Part shown: positions 560 to 7,359 of the stretch, one piece after another
Position numbering within the stretch: the stretch's first letter is position 1
Layout of the letters: each line of letters opens with the position of its first letter
DNA from: Dehalococcoidia bacterium
GTDB lineage: Bacteria > Chloroflexota > Dehalococcoidia > SHYD01
NCBI GenBank assembly: GCA_965226775.1
Contig: CBDDEI010000002.1
Location: 653,638-717,637, forward strand
Direction: 5' to 3'
Length of the DNA: 64,000 bases
Position numbers and translations under genes: made by a program
The notes under the pieces: generated by a model
What the model was told of the DNA's origin: nothing
The model's database searches: none
Seen by the model: only the letters and a program-made list of their open reading frames with translations

Positions 560-1860
560 GATCCAGAACGAGAAGCAGTTTCTGGACTAAGAATGGACCA
601 GGCCTTCATCTCGCTATAAGATTGCCTGCAGTGTTAGGAGATAGTCTGTAGCACGATTTATGACACTTTGACGTCGATAATGCCAGCTGACTTAAAGGGC
701 TTCGAAGAGCGTATTGGATGAAGCGGTAGAAGGCTTCCAGGACCAGTTAGAGAGTGCTAAAGACGAAAGCTGACCAATGATGGTTTTCAATTCTACCGCC
801 TATTGGTTGGAAGGGTGAATCGCTTGCCTAATGGCAGTCAGAATTGCGTCTTCAAAGACCTTACGAGAAAATCCCTAATGGGCTGTCCTTCTCTACCTCC
901 AACGGCGAACCTTGCCTATCACTGAGCCCGCTCTAGTATGGAGCTCTGACAGAACCAAGTTGCTTTGGCAAAAGTCAGCTCAATGAACTGGTAGCTTTAT
1001 CAGGACTCGTAGCTGAGTCCTTAAAGCGCTTGCCTGGCGAGTTAGCCATTTTGATACTGAACTTGGGATCCTGTTGCTTCAATGTGAGAAGGAGCCCAGT
1101 TACCATGCTTCCCTCAATGGGCATCCTCCAAGTTCGTTTGAAAGGCTGCTGCCTTTGCCAACATGAATCGAGAAAATGCTTTAGCTGGGGCTGACTTGCC
1201 TTCCAAGTGCTCCATGTTGAATTTCTCTATTAGAGAGTTGCGAATAGCGTCCCATTATTACTATGGAGCAAATGCCTGGAAGCGTAGGCCGCTTCAAGGC
1301 TAGAGGTCCCGAACTCTCGCCTCTGATGAATGAAACCTAATCATCGATAAGCTAATTCACCAATGAGATAGCTTCAGCCCGATCCTAACGGCAAGGGCAT
1401 GTCTCCTAAGCTGGAAGCTTACGCTCTCTAATGACCTTAAATCGACCTCATGTCTCAGCTATATAAGCCCTATGATTTCATCTTAAGAGTGGCTGATAGA
1501 TCAAGCGGGGGGCTATTGCTAAACCTGGATTCAAGGAAACCTTCGGCATAGAGGTGCAGCCCTCTGGCCATGAAGCCAAAACCGAATCATCCATCTCTTC
1601 CAAAACGATAAGGATGGGTTGCTTAAGCCGATGGTGTTCGTCCAAGTCGTAAATTGCAGACGGCCTCGCGGAACACTTGCTTTCTAGCTCTTTAACCTTT
1701 GCAAGCACTTCATCCAAGGTGATTGATTGATGTGTGGAGGATAGTTGACTCATGTATTACACCATTGCTAGGAGGGATATGCACCTTTTGTAAGGCCTAT
1801 TGTCTTGCAGATTGACCGCCAACGTCAAAGTCCTTCGTAGAATTCAGACTTTCCTTCCCT
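560..1860. other. AT-rich (~47% GC) ORF-poor region, probably decayed foreign DNA or a non-coding element
   Basis: Composition is visibly lower-GC than the flanking ~63% GC coding DNA. Only one 91-aa ORF (1478-1753, -) with no RBS. Lies directly downstream of the prophage portal gene. Confidence 0.5.
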
Positions 1861-1895
1861 CACCCTAACCCTCTCCCAGAGGGCGAGGGAAGCAC

Positions 1896-3224
1896 TTAGC
1901 CCTCCTCCTCTCGCCACCTAGCCAGCTCCGCGTCGGGGTCGGCCACGCCGAGCAGGTCCGCCGCGGTGTGGCGAGAGTGGATGCCCGCCGCCACCAGCGC
2001 CGTCTCATCGGCCACCAGGCGGCTGCGGTCTTGCGGCAGCACCGAGCCCCAATTGATGCCCAGTCGCACCGGCCCAAAGCGCTGATCCGTCTTTTGCTCC
2101 AGCACCCGCAGGATCATCTGGTTTCGTTGCCGGTAGGCCGCGCTCCTGATGAGCCGCTTGCGCTTCACCTTCTGCAACAACGGGTGCAGCTCCATCTCCA
2201 ACGCCACGCCGGAGAGCGCTCGGCTGTTGTCGCCAAAGCTGGTGCGGGGCGCTTCCCCCAAGTCGTGGAGCGCCCGGTACAGCAGGTCGATGTAGCTGGT
2301 GTGCAGTTGCACGCCGCCGCCCTGCAGCAGATCCAGGAGGTATGCCTTAGCCCGCTCCGGCAGCTCCCACACCGCGCCTGGCTGCACTGCGATGTCCTGC
2401 GCGTCCTCCACGTTCTCCAGCACGGCAATGGGGTTGCCGGAAAGCTCGAGGATACTGGAAAGCTGGGTGAAGGCTCGGTTCAGCTCCCGGGCCGGCTCCA
2501 TCAAGGGGGCCAGGTCCGACACCCCCCAGAACTGCTTGGCCTCCCTTAGGTTGGGGAAGACCACAAAGGGGATGAAGCCGTAAGGGTTGGCCTTGGACTC
2601 CAGCAGCTCCCCCTCCAGCCAGAGCTGGAAGGCGTCTGCCGTCCACACCTCCGTAACGGCGTAGCTCTGCTTCTGCTGCCGAGCGCCCCGCGTCCTGCCT
2701 GCGGCCAGCGCCTGCGCGCCGTACAGCGCTGCCGCTTCTTCTGCGCTCAACGCGTACCGGCTGGCCACGCGCCACAGCCGGCCGGGGTCGTCGCCCCACC
2801 ACCAGACGTAGAGGCCCTGCACGTCCGGCGCGGTAACCCGCACCCGGCCTTGCGCCGGGTCCCAGGTCACTTTGAAGCAGCCGTCGCCCAGGATGGCGGT
2901 ATCCACCTCCGTGTCGAAGTCCAACTGCGCCAGGCCGTTGGCATCGTAGACCTGCGCCAGCGCGCGCTCCGCCTTGGTCGCCGCCTCGGCTGCCTCCGGC
3001 GAGGTCTCCCACGCCTCCGCGGTGTAGGTCACCTCGCTCATAAGATAAGAGGTAGCCTTCTCGACGAGCACCTTGGCGTAGTTGAAGGTGAGACGGCGCT
3101 CCCTGCGCCACGCCCGGCCCTGCCACTGCGCGCCTCGGTAGAACTCCAGGTGTTCTCTGTAGCGCCGGAACCGTTCCTGATCCATGCGGGCGAGTTGCTG
3201 TGGAAAGGGTGCTGTTTGTTCCAT
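1896..3224 (-). CDS. Phage portal protein (SPP1 Gp6-like family)
   Basis: 442 aa with a portal-family conserved core (…SSILELSGNPIAVLENVEDAQ…). Immediately downstream of terminase genes. Confidence 0.8.
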   Translation of the reverse strand: MEQTAPFPQQLARMDQERFRRYREHLEFYRGAQWQGRAWRRERRLTFNYAKVLVEKATSYLMSEVTYTAEAWETSPEAAEAATKAERALAQVYDANGLAQLDFDTEVDTAILGDGCFKVTWDPAQGRVRVTAPDVQGLYVWWWGDDPGRLWRVASRYALSAEEAAALYGAQALAAGRTRGARQQKQSYAVTEVWTADAFQLWLEGELLESKANPYGFIPFVVFPNLREAKQFWGVSDLAPLMEPARELNRAFTQLSSILELSGNPIAVLENVEDAQDIAVQPGAVWELPERAKAYLLDLLQGGGVQLHTSYIDLLYRALHDLGEAPRTSFGDNSRALSGVALEMELHPLLQKVKRKRLIRSAAYRQRNQMILRVLEQKTDQRFGPVRLGINWGSVLPQDRSRLVADETALVAAGIHSRHTAADLLGVADPDAELARWREEEG

Positions 3225-3322
3225 AAAGAAGTTACTCCTCTTGTATCATCCCAACCCCCGCAAAGGGGTTTGAGGTAACCTACGGGTTCATCAATGAGTT
3301 CAGGGGGACTCCCCCGTGATGC

Positions 3323-3637
3323 CTATTGCTGACCCTGCCCTCGCATGCGGGCCACCGCACGGTGCACTGTGCGACGGCTCACGCCAAAGCGCTCCGCCAG
3401 CGCGTGGATGTCCGGCCCCCGCTCCAGGTACAGCCGGTAGATCTCCTTGTCCCGCTCCTCCTGCGCCTGCCGTCGCTCCTCCTCTGGCTCATCGTAGATG
3501 CACTTCGCCAGCGGACATCGCAGGCAGGAGGGTGATACCTCGCACCCGGTATCCGGGAAGTAATCCTCGCTCGGCTCCCGGTCCACCAGCGGCAGCCGGC
3601 GCTTCTTGCTGTAAAGCTCTGTTCGTAACCCTGTCAT
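3323..3637 (-). CDS. Small Zn-ribbon + C-terminal HTH DNA-binding protein (possible phage regulator or terminase small-subunit-like)
   Basis: 104 aa with four Cys (CEVSPSCLRCPLAKC) followed by a sigma-70 region-4-like HTH (IHALAERFGVSRRTVHRAV). Sits between TerL and portal. Confidence 0.5.
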   Translation of the reverse strand: MTGLRTELYSKKRRLPLVDREPSEDYFPDTGCEVSPSCLRCPLAKCIYDEPEEERRQAQEERDKEIYRLYLERGPDIHALAERFGVSRRTVHRAVARMRGQGQQ

Positions 3638-3651
3638 TGACCGTCCCCCAC

Positions 3652-5025
3652 TTACGCATTGCTGTAACTCCGACCTCTCGCACTCCGGGGCTGGTACATA
3701 CTCGCCGCCTCCAGGGTGAGCGCTAAGCTCATCAGGTAATCGTCATGGCCGTCCCGCTCCTTCACGTAGAATTGCATCCGTTGGTTGGATCGATACTCTC
3801 CTTGCGCCCGCTGCAACTGCCGCCACAGCTCCCCACACTCCTCGGTGCCGTCCGGCGCATACAGCTTCAGGCGATGCAGGTTGGCTGCCGCCAGCAGCGC
3901 GAAGCCCAGGCGTGACTTGCTCTCCGCACTGAACACAAAGGGGTGCGCTACGGCCGCGCCCAGCAGTCGCTGGAGCATGCTGGCGATGCCTTGGCCCAGG
4001 CCCGTGGCGTCTACTAGCACGCGACGGCAATGCCAGGTGCGCCCCAGTAGGCCCGACAGCTCGCCGATGAGCGACGCGTGGTCGCGGCCGCTCCAGCGCG
4101 CGTGTTCCACCACCTCGACTCGTGGCGCGGGCACCAGTGACGGCTCATCGCTGGGCATCACCCGCGCGATGGTCGCCACTGTGGCATCGTGTTCCCGCGC
4201 TCCTTCGCCCTCTCCCGCGCCGCCGCCAATATCGACGCCCGCCACGTAGACGGCGCCGTCGGGCGCGTGCAGCCGGGGGTGGTCACCCTGCAACCACGCC
4301 AGCTGTTGCGCGCTGAACAGCCCGAGGCCGCCGTGGAGCGGCTCCAGGCAGTACTGCGTGCGGAACAGGGGATGGTTGCTCCCCAACCGCGCCTCTTCGC
4401 CTGCTACGTAGACGCCATAGTTGGGGTTGTGTCGTGCCACTTCTTGCCAGTCGTAGTGGAAATGGCGTTGTATGCCATCCTTCCGCTCTAGCTCCAGGTT
4501 CACCTGTTTCTGCTGCTCCAGCAGCGACTCGCCGTCCCAGGGCGTGCCGTATAGCACGGTAGTGGCGTTGGCGCTGGCCCCCATGGGCCGGAACTCCTTC
4601 TGATACTTCTCCGGGTCCACGTCCTGGGCCTCGTCCACCTCCAGCAGCAGGTCGGCGGTCGCGCCCACCACGTTGGCCGACGGTTCCGCGCTGTAGAAGC
4701 GTTGCTGCGCCCGGCCCAGCCGCACCAGGTAGCCGTGCTCCGTGCGGACGTGGTCGCCGTAGCCCGCTTCCGACAAGCGAGCCCGCAGCCGCTCCATACT
4801 GATGAGCGCCTGAGGGGCAAAGGTGGGCGCGCACTTCACGCCGCTCCCGCCCTTGAGCATGTGGAGGGTCAGCAGCAAGGTCTCCAGCTGTGCCGAGAGT
4901 TCGTTCTTGCCTCCCTGCCGGGCGATCTCCACGGTGAAGGTAAGGCCGTTGCGGTTCAGCACGCTGTCCAGCACCGCCCGCCCGACCTCTACCTGGTACG
5001 GCCGCAATTTACGCATCACAGCCAC
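3652..5025 (-). CDS. terL: Phage terminase large subunit
   Basis: 457 aa with an N-terminal ATPase (Walker A-like GGKN, Walker B LLEVDEAQD) and a C-terminal RNaseH-like nuclease with acidic residues (VAGVDIGGG, HDDY). Confidence 0.85.
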   Translation of the reverse strand: MAVMRKLRPYQVEVGRAVLDSVLNRNGLTFTVEIARQGGKNELSAQLETLLLTLHMLKGGSGVKCAPTFAPQALISMERLRARLSEAGYGDHVRTEHGYLVRLGRAQQRFYSAEPSANVVGATADLLLEVDEAQDVDPEKYQKEFRPMGASANATTVLYGTPWDGESLLEQQKQVNLELERKDGIQRHFHYDWQEVARHNPNYGVYVAGEEARLGSNHPLFRTQYCLEPLHGGLGLFSAQQLAWLQGDHPRLHAPDGAVYVAGVDIGGGAGEGEGAREHDATVATIARVMPSDEPSLVPAPRVEVVEHARWSGRDHASLIGELSGLLGRTWHCRRVLVDATGLGQGIASMLQRLLGAAVAHPFVFSAESKSRLGFALLAAANLHRLKLYAPDGTEECGELWRQLQRAQGEYRSNQRMQFYVKERDGHDDYLMSLALTLEAASMYQPRSARGRSYSNA

Positions 5026-5123
5026 GCACTACCCACGGCTCAATCCGTCCAGGGTGAGCGAATGATCCGATTGAGAAAAATGGTGAGTCAGGTGTTGATT
5101 GAAATGCTTCCACAAACCGGTCC

Positions 5124-5357
5124 TCATGCCATACCCGACCATTTCAACAGCAGCTGCGTCAGCACCGCGCCCGCCACTAAATAGAGCAGCCCGTTGATGC
5201 GGCTCCGCACCTCTGCCATCTCCCGCTCCAGTGCCGCCAAGCGCGCCGCCAGCTCTATCGCCGACACCACGGCGCTTGGAGCAGCAGCCGGAGCGTGATT
5301 GCCCGCCGCGCGCGACCGCTGTAGCAACGACCGCAGCGCGCGGGTGAACTCATCCAC
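5124..5357 (-). CDS. Small phage-associated protein with coiled-coil and C-terminal transmembrane helix
   Basis: The GTG start overlaps the stop of the upstream gene (GTGGATGA coupling). C-terminal hydrophobic helix LLYLVAGAVLTQLLL. Confidence 0.4.
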   Translation of the reverse strand: MDEFTRALRSLLQRSRAAGNHAPAAAPSAVVSAIELAARLAALEREMAEVRSRINGLLYLVAGAVLTQLLLKWSGMA

Positions 5358-5706
5358 GGGAATCTTCCTCCGGCAGCAGCAACTCGCCGACACCCTTCAG
5401 CACACCCACCGCGCTCTGAAAGAGATCGTCCTCACTCTTGCCGCTGATGCGATAGCGCGCCGCCACCGCGCGCACTAACAGCTCCATGCCCCGCAGGATC
5501 ACGGGCATGTCATCCGGGTGCTGTGCCAGGCTGCTGTACAGCTTCACCCGTAAGACCGCGATCTCCTCGTCCAGTCCCTCCACCGCTCGTGCGGGACCTA
5601 ACGCCGCTTGCTCGGCTTCCTGGAGCGCGGTGGTGTAAAAGTCTCGAGCGACTTTACGGGTCCGCCGCCGTTTTACTGGATGGACTCGCTCCGGTTCCTT
5701 AGTCAT
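5350..5706 (-). CDS. Hypothetical phage-associated protein (118 aa)
   Basis: In-frame ATG at 5706 overlaps the stop of the preceding small gene (ATGACTAA). The N-terminal extension offered by the ORF track (to 5757) is Arg/Cys-rich and unlikely to be real. Confidence 0.45.
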   Translation of the reverse strand: MTKEPERVHPVKRRRTRKVARDFYTTALQEAEQAALGPARAVEGLDEEIAVLRVKLYSSLAQHPDDMPVILRGMELLVRAVAARYRISGKSEDDLFQSAVGVLKGVGELLLPEEDSRG

Positions 5707-5845
5707 GCGGCTCCTCGAGCAGTGCCAGGATCTCCGGCAGAGTGTCCGGCACCGCATCCTCCAAGGTTCGTAGCAGGCCCAACGCGAGCAACAGCGCCAC
5801 CAGCTCCCATTGCTCCTGTTTGATAGCTTGTTCCAATGTGCTCAT
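5699..5845 (-). CDS. Small hypothetical protein (48 aa), translationally coupled
   Basis: Not in the ORF track (too short). ATG preceded by AGGAGG. The start overlaps the stop of the 5842-6144 gene (ATGA). Acidic, helical sequence. Confidence 0.4.
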   Translation of the reverse strand: MSTLEQAIKQEQWELVALLLALGLLRTLEDAVPDTLPEILALLEEPHD

Positions 5846-6144
5846 GCCTTGCCTCCTGTGAGTCGAACCAGCAGTCGCTGCACTACCGCCAGCGCAATCG
5901 CCAGGCTCCCTAACGCGACCATGCCTTGGGCTAGCGCAGCCGTTTCCGGCGACGGTTCAGCGCCGCGCCAGAGACTTACCCCGTGCACAACGCTCTGGGC
6001 CAACGTCCCGCCGCACACCAGCGCGAGAATGTTTGCGCTTCTGCGCCGCCGGTGTCCTAGGGGGCGGATCGTGGCAAAGTAGGCTGCGTTGCCCGCGCTG
6101 GCAAGCGTAGTGATAGCGTGTAAAATCAGCAGTCCTTCTGTCAC
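5842..6144 (-). CDS. Small membrane protein (3 predicted TM segments; holin-like?)
   Basis: 100 aa, hydrophobic. First gene of the coupled small-gene string upstream of terL. Confidence 0.4.
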   Translation of the reverse strand: MTEGLLILHAITTLASAGNAAYFATIRPLGHRRRRSANILALVCGGTLAQSVVHGVSLWRGAEPSPETAALAQGMVALGSLAIALAVVQRLLVRLTGGKA

Positions 6145-6330
6145 CGTGCTCCTCTACTGGCCGGGCTGTCCCCGCCCTCATTCAGTACCGCCACTCAACA
6201 ACTTCCTACCGCGGGGCAAGGCTCAGCCCGACCAGTGAAGTAAAAATAGAATAAACGTTCTAATTTAGTCAAGACAAATGGCACAGATGTAACCGTTGTC
6301 ATTACGAGAAGAGTGGGGAGTGCGTCGGGC

Positions 6331-7217
6331 GTGGCAGCCACCCCCGCTCGTGGTGAGCTAGTCGAACCAGGAGCAGGTGCGCGGGCCTCTGTCATTGCGA
6401 GGACTCGCCCTAAGGCGAGGCCGTGGCAATCTGGGGCGGGGGAGGAGGCGTTGCCCGTAGCCTGCGCGTGGGACACTCCCCGACACCGTGCCTCCCCGCC
6501 TCCCCAGATTGCTTCGCTCCTGCGTCGCTCCTCGCAAAGACGGGCTCACCATGAGCGGAGCGGGCAGCGTACCCCCGCTCATGGTGAGCTAGTCGAACCA
6601 GGAGCAGGCGCTGGGCCTCTGTCGTTGCGAGGACTCACCCTAGGCGAGGCCGTGGCAATCTGGGGCGGGGAGGAGCGCCGTTGCCCGTTGGCCTGCGCGT
6701 GGGACTGCTCCCCGACACCGTGCCTCCCGGCCTCCCCAGATTCGCTTCGTCACTCCTGCGTCGCTCCTCGCATGGTTCGACGGGCTGCGGAGCGGAGCGG
6801 GCAGCCACCCCCGCTCATGGTGAGCTAGTCGAACCAGGAGCAGGCGCGCGGGCCTCTGTCGTTGCGAGGACTCGCCCTAGGCGAGGCCGTGGCAATCTGG
6901 GGCGGGGGAGGCGCCGTTGCCCGTTGGCCTGCGCGTGGGATGCTCCCCGACACCGTGCCTCCCCGCCTCCCCAGATTGCTTCGTCACTCCTGCGTCGCTC
7001 CTCGCAAAGACAGTGTGGAGCGGTATGGCAGCCACCCCCGCTCGTGGTGAGCTAGTCGAACCAGGAGCAGGACTCGCCCTGTAGGCGAGGCCGTGGCAAT
7101 CTGGGGCGGGGGAGGAGGCGTTGTCCGTTGGCCTGCGCGTGGGATGCTCCCCGACACCGTGCCTCACCCACCTCACCGATTGCTTCGTCGAACTCCTGCG
7201 TCGCTCCTCGCAAAGAC
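6331..7217. repeat. Tandem direct repeat, ~230-bp unit, about 4 copies (last copy internally deleted), with nested inverted repeats
   Basis: Unit starts (cccccgctcRtggtgagctagtcgaacc) at 6341, 6572, 6808 and 7035, giving spacings of 231, 236 and 227 bp. Within a unit, ttgcgaggactcg pairs with cgtcgctcctcgcaa, and gcaatctggggcgggggagg pairs with cctccccgcctccccagattgc. ORFs across the array shift frame between copies, so it is non-coding. Confidence 0.9.
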
Positions 7218-7359
7218 AGTGCTGGGGTGGTAGGGTGGCCAGCCCTCCGCAGCCAGCATCTTGCCTCCCGCACGCCTGCAGTGTAGAGTGCGTTGAGCAA
7301 CAGCTTCGGTGGTCGAGCCTGCCGAGAGCACCGAGGCTTAATGAAAAGATGCGTTTAGC

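Follow-up and report, generated by a model that had tools for sequence, protein, structure and literature searches.

What is a phage-type DNA-packaging motor, together with its portal, doing on a Dehalococcoidia chromosome with only host genes for neighbours? The question is raised by a cassette of seven genes on the minus strand (1896-6144) of a 64,000-nucleotide stretch of a Dehalococcoidia bacterium of the SHYD01 lineage (assembly GCA_965226775.1, contig CBDDEI010000002.1, positions 653,638 to 717,637), a stretch referred to below as the window. An earlier examination of the letters, the sequence-only reading, had taken the cassette for a cryptic prophage remnant reduced to a packaging module. 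Comparison with homologous loci, which are numbered here with the prefix L and together amount to 2.8 Mb of sequence, points to another answer: with a probability that we put at roughly 0.6, the cassette is the SOS-controlled packaging operon of a dispersed, vertically inherited, phage-derived particle system resembling a gene transfer agent (GTA).

The cassette forms one operon, in which four small overlapping genes (g1 to g4) are followed by genes for the large terminase (TerL), a four-cysteine helix-turn-helix (Cys4-HTH) protein and the portal. All of its open reading frames (ORFs) are intact. In the direction of transcription, the features are as follows.

6243-6272, minus strand: operon promoter of the sigma-70 type, located by consensus scan, with TTGACT (6272-6267), an 18-nt spacer and TATTTT (6248-6243)
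6247-6262, minus strand: predicted LexA-type (Cheo-like) operator TAGAACGTTTATTCTA, recognised by motif similarity, which sits in the spacer and overlaps the -10 hexamer
5842-6144, minus strand: g1, a membrane protein of 100 amino acids with three hydrophobic segments
5699-5845, minus strand: g2, 48 amino acids, with the conserved core MxxLxxAIExxxWxLAAxxLLLG
5350-5706, minus strand: g3, 118 amino acids, all-helical, with a basic N-terminal tail
5124-5357, minus strand: g4, 77 amino acids, with a coiled region and a C-terminal hydrophobic helix
3652-5025, minus strand: TerL, 457 amino acids, predicted packaging ATPase and RNase H-like nuclease
3323-3637, minus strand: Cys4-HTH protein, 104 amino acids, with a four-cysteine motif and a C-terminal helix-turn-helix
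1896-3224, minus strand: predicted SPP1-type portal, 442 amino acids (PF05133, phrog_64)
1854-1892, minus strand: GC-rich hairpin with a 13-bp stem and no U tract, directly after the portal stop codon

The gene overlaps that the sequence-only reading had described can be read in the letters themselves: ATGA between g1 and g2, ATGACTAA joining the stop of g2 to the start of g3, and GTGGATGA between g3 and g4. At the other end, the hairpin region (1810-1900) gives an RNA fold of -33.6 kcal/mol (z = -2.0) and is unique in the window, and the hairpin is the probable end of the operon. Searches of the 64 kb for tRNAs and Rfam RNAs returned nothing.

The portal is assigned from profile matches. The product of 1896-3224 matches Pfam SPP1_portal (PF05133) over residues 15-441 with E = 2e-21 and 76.8 bits against a cut-off of 25.5, as well as phrog_64 with E = 4e-31; with a match that exceeds the curated threshold across the whole protein, an SPP1-type portal is predicted, in agreement with what had been recognised by eye. 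TerL, in turn, is recognised by fold and motifs. Profile searches with its sequence found no match in Pfam, NCBIfam or PDB, and neither TerL nor the small proteins have a name in curated family libraries. In the AlphaFold model of TerL, the nuclease domain has a predicted local distance difference test (pLDDT) score above 85 and the ATPase domain is of low confidence; the top 22 PDB matches of this model are all large terminases, with a template-modelling (TM) score of 0.74 to the G20c terminase nuclease and full-length fold matches to the HK97, Sf6 and T4 terminases. Across 20 homologues the motifs ARQGGKNE (Walker A-like), LLEVDEAQD (Walker B) and YGTP (coupling) are invariant, as are the acidic nuclease residues D265, D339 and D428/D429. 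Carrying the marks of both the ATPase and the RNase H-like nuclease, the protein is a predicted large terminase, and the earlier call of an intact TerL stands. Residue 41 (about 4903-4905), directly after the Walker A lysine, is an invariant Asn at a place where terminases usually have Ser or Thr. In the database annotation, the ATG at position 5016 is taken as the start of TerL.

The cassette is orthologous, syntenic, vertically inherited and under purifying selection across the Dehalococcoidia. Chloroflexota assemblies contain more than 4000 homologues of TerL, at 55-78% identity and on contigs of up to 2.9 Mb, and every named source is a Chloroflexota or Dehalococcoidia assembly. In a scan of one genome per species, the counts of which are lower bounds, the cassette TerL was present in at least 475 species-level genomes, all of them Dehalococcoidia or Chloroflexota with the exception of two probable mis-binned contigs. 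Similarity among the TerL proteins tracks the taxonomic labels of their sources. The gene order Tag-cassette-GNAT is common to the window, to L087, which belongs to the same species (96-98% nucleotide identity, TerL 100% identical), and to the more divergent L084 and L083 (TerL 74% and 68% identical to that of the window, respectively). The sequence-only reading had proposed a comparison with relatives lacking the element; the cassette was found at the same locus in all relatives examined. Compared with L084, identity is 68-76% for the flanking host proteins, 74% for TerL and 81% for the portal, and the cassette has therefore diverged in step with, or more slowly than, its host neighbours. Within the species, the cassettes of the window and L087 differ at 46 synonymous and 7 non-synonymous positions, for a ratio of non-synonymous to synonymous change (dN/dS) of about 0.04 (TerL, 10 synonymous and 0 non-synonymous; portal, 24 and 3), a degree of constraint equal to that of the neighbouring Tag, RadC and dehydrogenase genes. 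Domestication or purifying selection had been suspected at the outset from the intact ORFs and host-like GC content, and the substitution counts and conserved synteny bear the suspicion out.

The particle genes that would be expected beside such an operon are found in relatives. On the 540-kb contig of L005, the cassette is followed by a scaffold-like coiled-coil ORF, a gene for an HK97-fold capsid protein (phrog_212, E = 3e-79; Pfam Phage_capsid), two small ORFs, an SU10-type head-to-tail adaptor (Pfam, 1e-12) and a 668-amino-acid protein for which no match was found, phage proteins included. MoaC and MoaA lie downstream of this array, and spermidine synthase, NadC, acyl-CoA dehydrogenases and a HIT protein lie upstream. 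On the 1.5-Mb contig of L251, the same gene set, with the last protein at 666-668 amino acids, stands between pheST and rpsU (S21). The contiguous form thus bounded by housekeeping genes measures about 10.5 kb, and the L005 and L251 loci have no integrase, replication, repressor, lysogeny or lysis gene. The sequence-only reading had also advised a check for attL/attR repeats; no att-like direct repeats were found flanking either the cassette or the contiguous L005 module. Homologues of the capsid gene number at least 6590, pairwise identities within the family stay above about 50%, and divergence is correlated between TerL and portal (r = 0.79) and between portal and capsid (r = 0.83). The cassette, the scaffold-like protein, the HK97-fold capsid, the adaptor and the protein of about 668 amino acids form a co-evolving set.

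In some lineages housekeeping genes divide this set into two to four loci. Where the sequence runs far enough past TerL (62 species-level loci), the portal gene lies within 1.2 kb in 35 and at 1.2-10 kb in 16, and none was found within 8 kb in the other 11. Downstream of the portal, where 28 loci offered enough sequence, a capsid gene is present in 13 and none was found within 6 kb in 15. The complete chromosome that contains L036 has genes for an Obg-like GTPase and an enoyl-CoA hydratase between TerL and the HTH-portal pair, and metabolic genes after the scaffold-like gene. Viewed from the capsid side, of the 16 capsid loci that extend at least 9 kb upstream, 12 lack a portal gene in that stretch, and on the 2.27-Mb contig of L147 a solitary capsid gene has a beta-lactamase-family gene on one side and a P450 gene on the other. 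A somewhat different arrangement occurs at L170 (8523-10882) and L127 (2838-7468), where a capsid gene of 71-74% identity lies beside a distant TerL (39-41%) in another order or on another strand; these loci may belong to another, related lineage or to a genuine phage relative.

The lineage of the window is of the cassette-only type. Profile searches of the 64 kb gave no match for the scaffold, capsid, adaptor or 668-amino-acid protein, and no integrase or tail gene is present in the window. No scaffold or capsid gene was found within 6-10 kb of the cassette in the cassette-only loci L087, L083, L084, L088 and L090, the span covered being 10 kb in L083, L088 and L090. The sequence-only reading, which had reported the lack of capsid, tail and integrase genes nearby, was right on this point. 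It had added that capsid and tail genes just outside the window would signal a complete prophage; in the near-identical L087, only host genes extend for 8 kb past the portal, beyond what corresponds to the left edge of the window. The claim that the module had been reduced by loss of its capsid genes fares less well, as relatives have these genes either adjacent to the cassette or at separate loci under the same promoter and operator.

That promoter is the second thread joining the dispersed pieces. A repeat search in L005 revealed that the scaffold gene is preceded by a second copy of the 55 nt that lie upstream of g1, and across loci the shared element takes the form G[AC]CA-N7/8-TTGAC-N3-5-TAGAAC-N4-[GA]TnCTA, in which the spacer is occupied by an inverted repeat that reaches the -10 hexamer. 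This promoter architecture precedes the cassette in L087, L084, L001, L005 and others. The 2.8 Mb contain 69 promoter-plus-box sites, and for 65 of them a module gene follows within 450 nt (scaffold 20, g1 19, HTH 14, g3 8, other module genes 4), and most other matches to the box are the same palindromes on the opposite strand. HTH-portal or scaffold-capsid pieces that have split off each carry their own copy of the motif. In the window, the operator at 6247-6262 is the sole AGAAC-N4-RTNCT site in 64 kb. The same type of box is found before the two lexA homologues among the loci, as AGAACATTAGTTCA in L012 and as GGAACATCTGTGCT plus AGAACAAATGTTAG in L138. GAAC-N4-GTTC, which we take to be the LexA (Cheo) box of Gram-positive bacteria, has reportedly been described for the LexA of Dehalococcoides as well. 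From the box shared by the module promoters and the boxes of the same type before lexA homologues, we infer that all pieces of the module would be directly repressed by LexA and induced in the SOS response.

Two further observations touch on this box. The lexA homologues mentioned above adjoin module genes, at 14350-14976 in L012 after a scaffold-like gene and at 884-1504 in L138 before a capsid gene; this adjacency was considered as a meaningful linkage and rejected, about one lexA being expected by chance in 2.8 Mb. In L062, an additional promoter and box at about 5288-5298 on the minus strand face away from the cassette, toward an ORF of 81 amino acids containing 'GNFNALKYGRH', which may be a further member of the regulon.

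The remaining genes of the operon are conserved too, and their functions can be suggested with varying degrees of caution. The 104-amino-acid protein between TerL and portal had been described as a four-cysteine protein with a helix-turn-helix, and both features are borne out. Its C-terminus is Mor/sigma-region-4-like, with matches to Mor (PF08765, 25.8 bits) and HTH_11; in Pfam and PHROG the matches are to Mor-type regulators and sigma region 4 rather than to small terminases (TerS), and no phage match was found for the protein. The motif C-x5-C-x2-C-x4-C is kept in 74 loci, and the gene is always directly upstream of the portal gene (82 loci), even where the two have split from TerL. It encodes either a regulator or a DNA-recognition subunit. 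The four small ORFs upstream of TerL belong to families that are conserved in 49 to 93 related loci (g1 49, g2 79, g3 93, g4 50) and are therefore not chance ORFs. Hydropathy assigns hydrophobic segments to three of the four products, and agrees with the earlier description of three transmembrane segments in one small protein and a C-terminal one in another: g1 has one strong and two moderate segments, and g4 has a peak at residues 57-73, at its C-terminus. For g1, a holin-like protein or a membrane anchor is our guess; it has a weak PHROG holin match (E = 0.077), and the module has no endolysin gene. Between the window and L087, g2 shows two synonymous and no non-synonymous differences. The g3 gene lies upstream of TerL in 79 of 82 loci, and its AlphaFold model consists of five helices (pLDDT 73). 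Neither sequence nor fold of g3 found a match in Pfam, PDB, BFVD, deposited phages, NCBIfam or PADLOC, and its homologue in L005 has one weak TerS match in PHROG (E = 0.008). By its position g3 is our guess for a small-terminase candidate, and it remains a matter of speculation whether g3 or the Cys4-HTH protein takes the small-terminase role. A reading of the cassette as a defence system was rejected, PADLOC having returned no match.

The immediate surroundings of the operon are more changeable. Between the Tag gene and the cassette promoter, at 6333-7260, lie four tandem GC-rich units of about 230 nt with internal inverted repeats, which do not recur elsewhere in the 64 kb; copy number varies, L087 of the same species having just two. 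On the portal side, a 1-kb segment of low GC content (about 46-50%) at 541-1539, between GNAT and the portal end, has no convincing ORF, and L087 has 459 unrelated bases in its place. This portal-proximal junction is variable in other genomes too, where it harbours DUF2513, a DNA methyltransferase, a SocA/Panacea antitoxin or HEPN/MNT pairs. Immediately past the portal hairpin, an ORF of 91 amino acids (1478-1753, minus strand) matched no family; part of it is conserved in L087, where 214 nt differ at 5 synonymous and 0 non-synonymous positions.

How might these parts work together? TerL with its motor and nuclease, the portal, the Cys4-HTH DNA-binding protein, the TerL-associated g3 and the three small membrane proteins would form the packaging end of a particle. 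LexA would repress the promoters of all module pieces, such that DNA damage would co-induce the dispersed loci; capsids would then assemble on the portal, and TerL would fill them with DNA. In the genome of the window, the capsid genes might reside at another locus. While capsid assembly and DNA packaging are inferred from the gene content, the final steps are speculative: the particles might, in the manner of a gene transfer agent, carry host DNA from cell to cell, and g1, g2 and g4, the small membrane proteins, might help in particle release. The complete set of particle genes is seen in one genome in L005, L251 and similar loci. The system also shows two of the marks of a GTA or viriform, in that phage-derived structural genes are fixed in the chromosome, inherited vertically and kept by purifying selection, without genes for integration, replication or lysogeny, and do not constitute an autonomous element.

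Several points weigh against this account. The 64-kb window, a part of a 2.36-Mb chromosome, yielded no capsid, adaptor or tail gene, and neither did the 8-10 kb flanks of the four closest lineages; no endolysin, tail-fibre or receptor-binding gene was recognised. Among the members of the 90% clusters of large capsid families there is no chromosome of the window's species. The dispersed arrangement is pieced together from complementary observations in different genomes, cassette-only loci in some and separate capsid loci in others. Control by LexA is predicted from the similarity of motifs, and particle formation and gene transfer are proposals drawn from genes, the relatives all being uncultured metagenome-assembled genomes.

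The rival explanations rank, in order of weight, from a particle that does not serve transfer, through a capsid-free function and a mobile satellite or phage, to neutral decay. In the first, an SOS-induced, phage-derived particle would confer a benefit other than gene transfer, for example altruistic lysis, a bacteriocin-like or decoy activity, the export or disposal of damaged DNA, or interference with phages through competition for assembly. The structural and regulatory evidence fits such a particle equally well, whatever its cargo and whether or not it is taken up, and the putative tail is minimal, consisting of the adaptor and one large protein without a recognisable receptor-binding domain. 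What makes this explanation unlikely is the strong selection on the ATPase and nuclease motifs of TerL, which argues for real cutting and packaging of DNA, activities that a killing or decoy particle would not need.

A second possibility, which we regard as improbable, is that in the lineage of the window the TerL-portal cassette works without a capsid, as an exapted, SOS-controlled machine for DNA translocation or processing. The cassette stands alone among host genes in the window and in L087, L083, L084, L088 and L090, as would be expected of such a machine, and the hydrophobic segments in three of the four upstream proteins would suit it. We know of no precedent for a capsid-free portal-terminase machine, however, and the capsid gene, wherever it is seen alongside portal and TerL, evolves in close concert with them; the solitary, well-conserved capsid genes in other chromosomes make a distant capsid locus the simpler explanation. 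Extended to all cassette-only lineages, so that each would have kept terminase and portal without a capsid as an SOS-induced, membrane-associated machine that translocates or processes DNA with its motor outside a virion, the idea is harder still to credit.

Third, the cassette could be part of a mobile element that is widespread and has integrated repeatedly in the Dehalococcoidia, whether as a small temperate phage or as a satellite resembling the capsid-forming phage-inducible chromosomal islands (cf-PICIs). About 210 IMG/VR contigs, mostly of 4-20 kb, carry the cassette TerL, and TerL, portal and capsid genes are contiguous in 71 of the best 80 (L171-L250); the contiguous form is of the size of a satellite, and the wider TerL superfamily is a large one (720 clusters at E<=1e-30). 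IMG/VR is biased, however, to contigs dense in hallmark genes, and the contigs in question are probably fragments of Dehalococcoidia chromosomes rather than viruses. In contiguous copies of the module, neither an integrase, a replication gene or a repressor nor a flanking direct repeat was found, the position in the chromosome is shared even where host genes are only about 70% identical, and housekeeping genes are interleaved with the module. Mobility of this kind is very unlikely. A phage-inducible chromosomal island (PICI) or cf-PICI satellite was rejected on the same grounds, no integrase, att sites, replication module or master repressor being found in the window or the contiguous loci, and the PICI-like use of the cassette entertained in the sequence-only reading, for which integrase, replication module and mobility are all lacking, goes with it.

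Last, the cryptic prophage remnant of the sequence-only reading, taken as functionless and decaying, could appeal to the missing capsid, tail and integrase genes near the cassette in the window's genome, but neutral decay is essentially excluded by a class-wide syntenic locus without integrase or att repeats, by within-species constraint as strong as that of neighbouring housekeeping genes, by intact ORFs of which even the small ones are widely conserved, and by invariant catalytic motifs and a conserved promoter and operator.

If the preferred reading of an SOS-controlled, GTA-like packaging operon is correct, it would add an independent, class-wide and SOS-tied origin of a GTA-like system in a phylum where we found none reported; our search of the accessible literature retrieved no description of a GTA or of a conserved terminase-portal locus in Chloroflexota or Dehalococcoidia. 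Dehalococcoidia abound in aquifers, sediments and the deep ocean, almost none have been cultured, and next to nothing is known of the routes by which they exchange genes. The core head genes would be scattered and linked by a common promoter and operator, and the box would offer a handle for finding the remaining components. There is also a practical side: virus-prediction tools call the cassette loci viral, as the IMG/VR contigs illustrate, and these are probably host genes that inflate provirus counts for the Dehalococcoidia.

Among known systems, complete phages offer one comparison. The nearest deposited TerL is that of Bacillus phage vB_BboS-125 (30% identity) and the nearest capsids are those of Pseudomonas phage Ab18-like siphoviruses (42%), with the nearest deposited portal at 23%; these phages share homologous TerL and capsid genes and the order TerL, portal and, further downstream, capsid. 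They differ in having complete genomes of 56-58 kb, in which no Cys4-HTH gene lies between TerL and portal and g1 to g4 have no homologues. The cf-PICIs are similar in content, with a compact set of about 10 kb for terminase, portal, scaffold, capsid and head-to-tail adaptor and no tail genes, whereas the Dehalococcoidia set is without integrase, att sites, replication and repressor genes, is fixed in position and is interleaved with host genes. LexA-controlled prophages and particles, such as GIL01 and CTXphi and the SOS-induced PBSX and pyocins, resemble it in having a host SOS operator inside the promoter of phage-derived structural genes, a feature that is predicted here. Those, however, are contiguous elements, either mobile prophages or tail-only bacteriocins; in the Dehalococcoidia, copies of the operator precede head-gene loci that are dispersed, and a phage repressor or lysogeny module is missing.

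Gene transfer agents themselves are represented by RcGTA of Rhodobacter capsulatus. There, too, phage structural genes are fixed in the chromosome, inherited vertically across a large clade and maintained by purifying selection; genes for integration and replication are missing, the particle genes can span several loci, and expression is tied to host regulators. Production of RcGTA depends on LexA. The Dehalococcoidia system differs in its independent origin, in the Chloroflexota, and in being far smaller, with no recognisable tail tube, tape measure or baseplate and only an SU10-type adaptor and the 668-amino-acid protein after the capsid. Its core head genes (TerL, HTH-portal, scaffold and capsid) are separated in many genomes, each with its own copy of promoter and operator, and it is known here through its genes. 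GTA-like domestication of phage genes is already known; the Dehalococcoidia would provide an independent instance of it, one with a minimal gene set and a fragmented, regulon-like layout.

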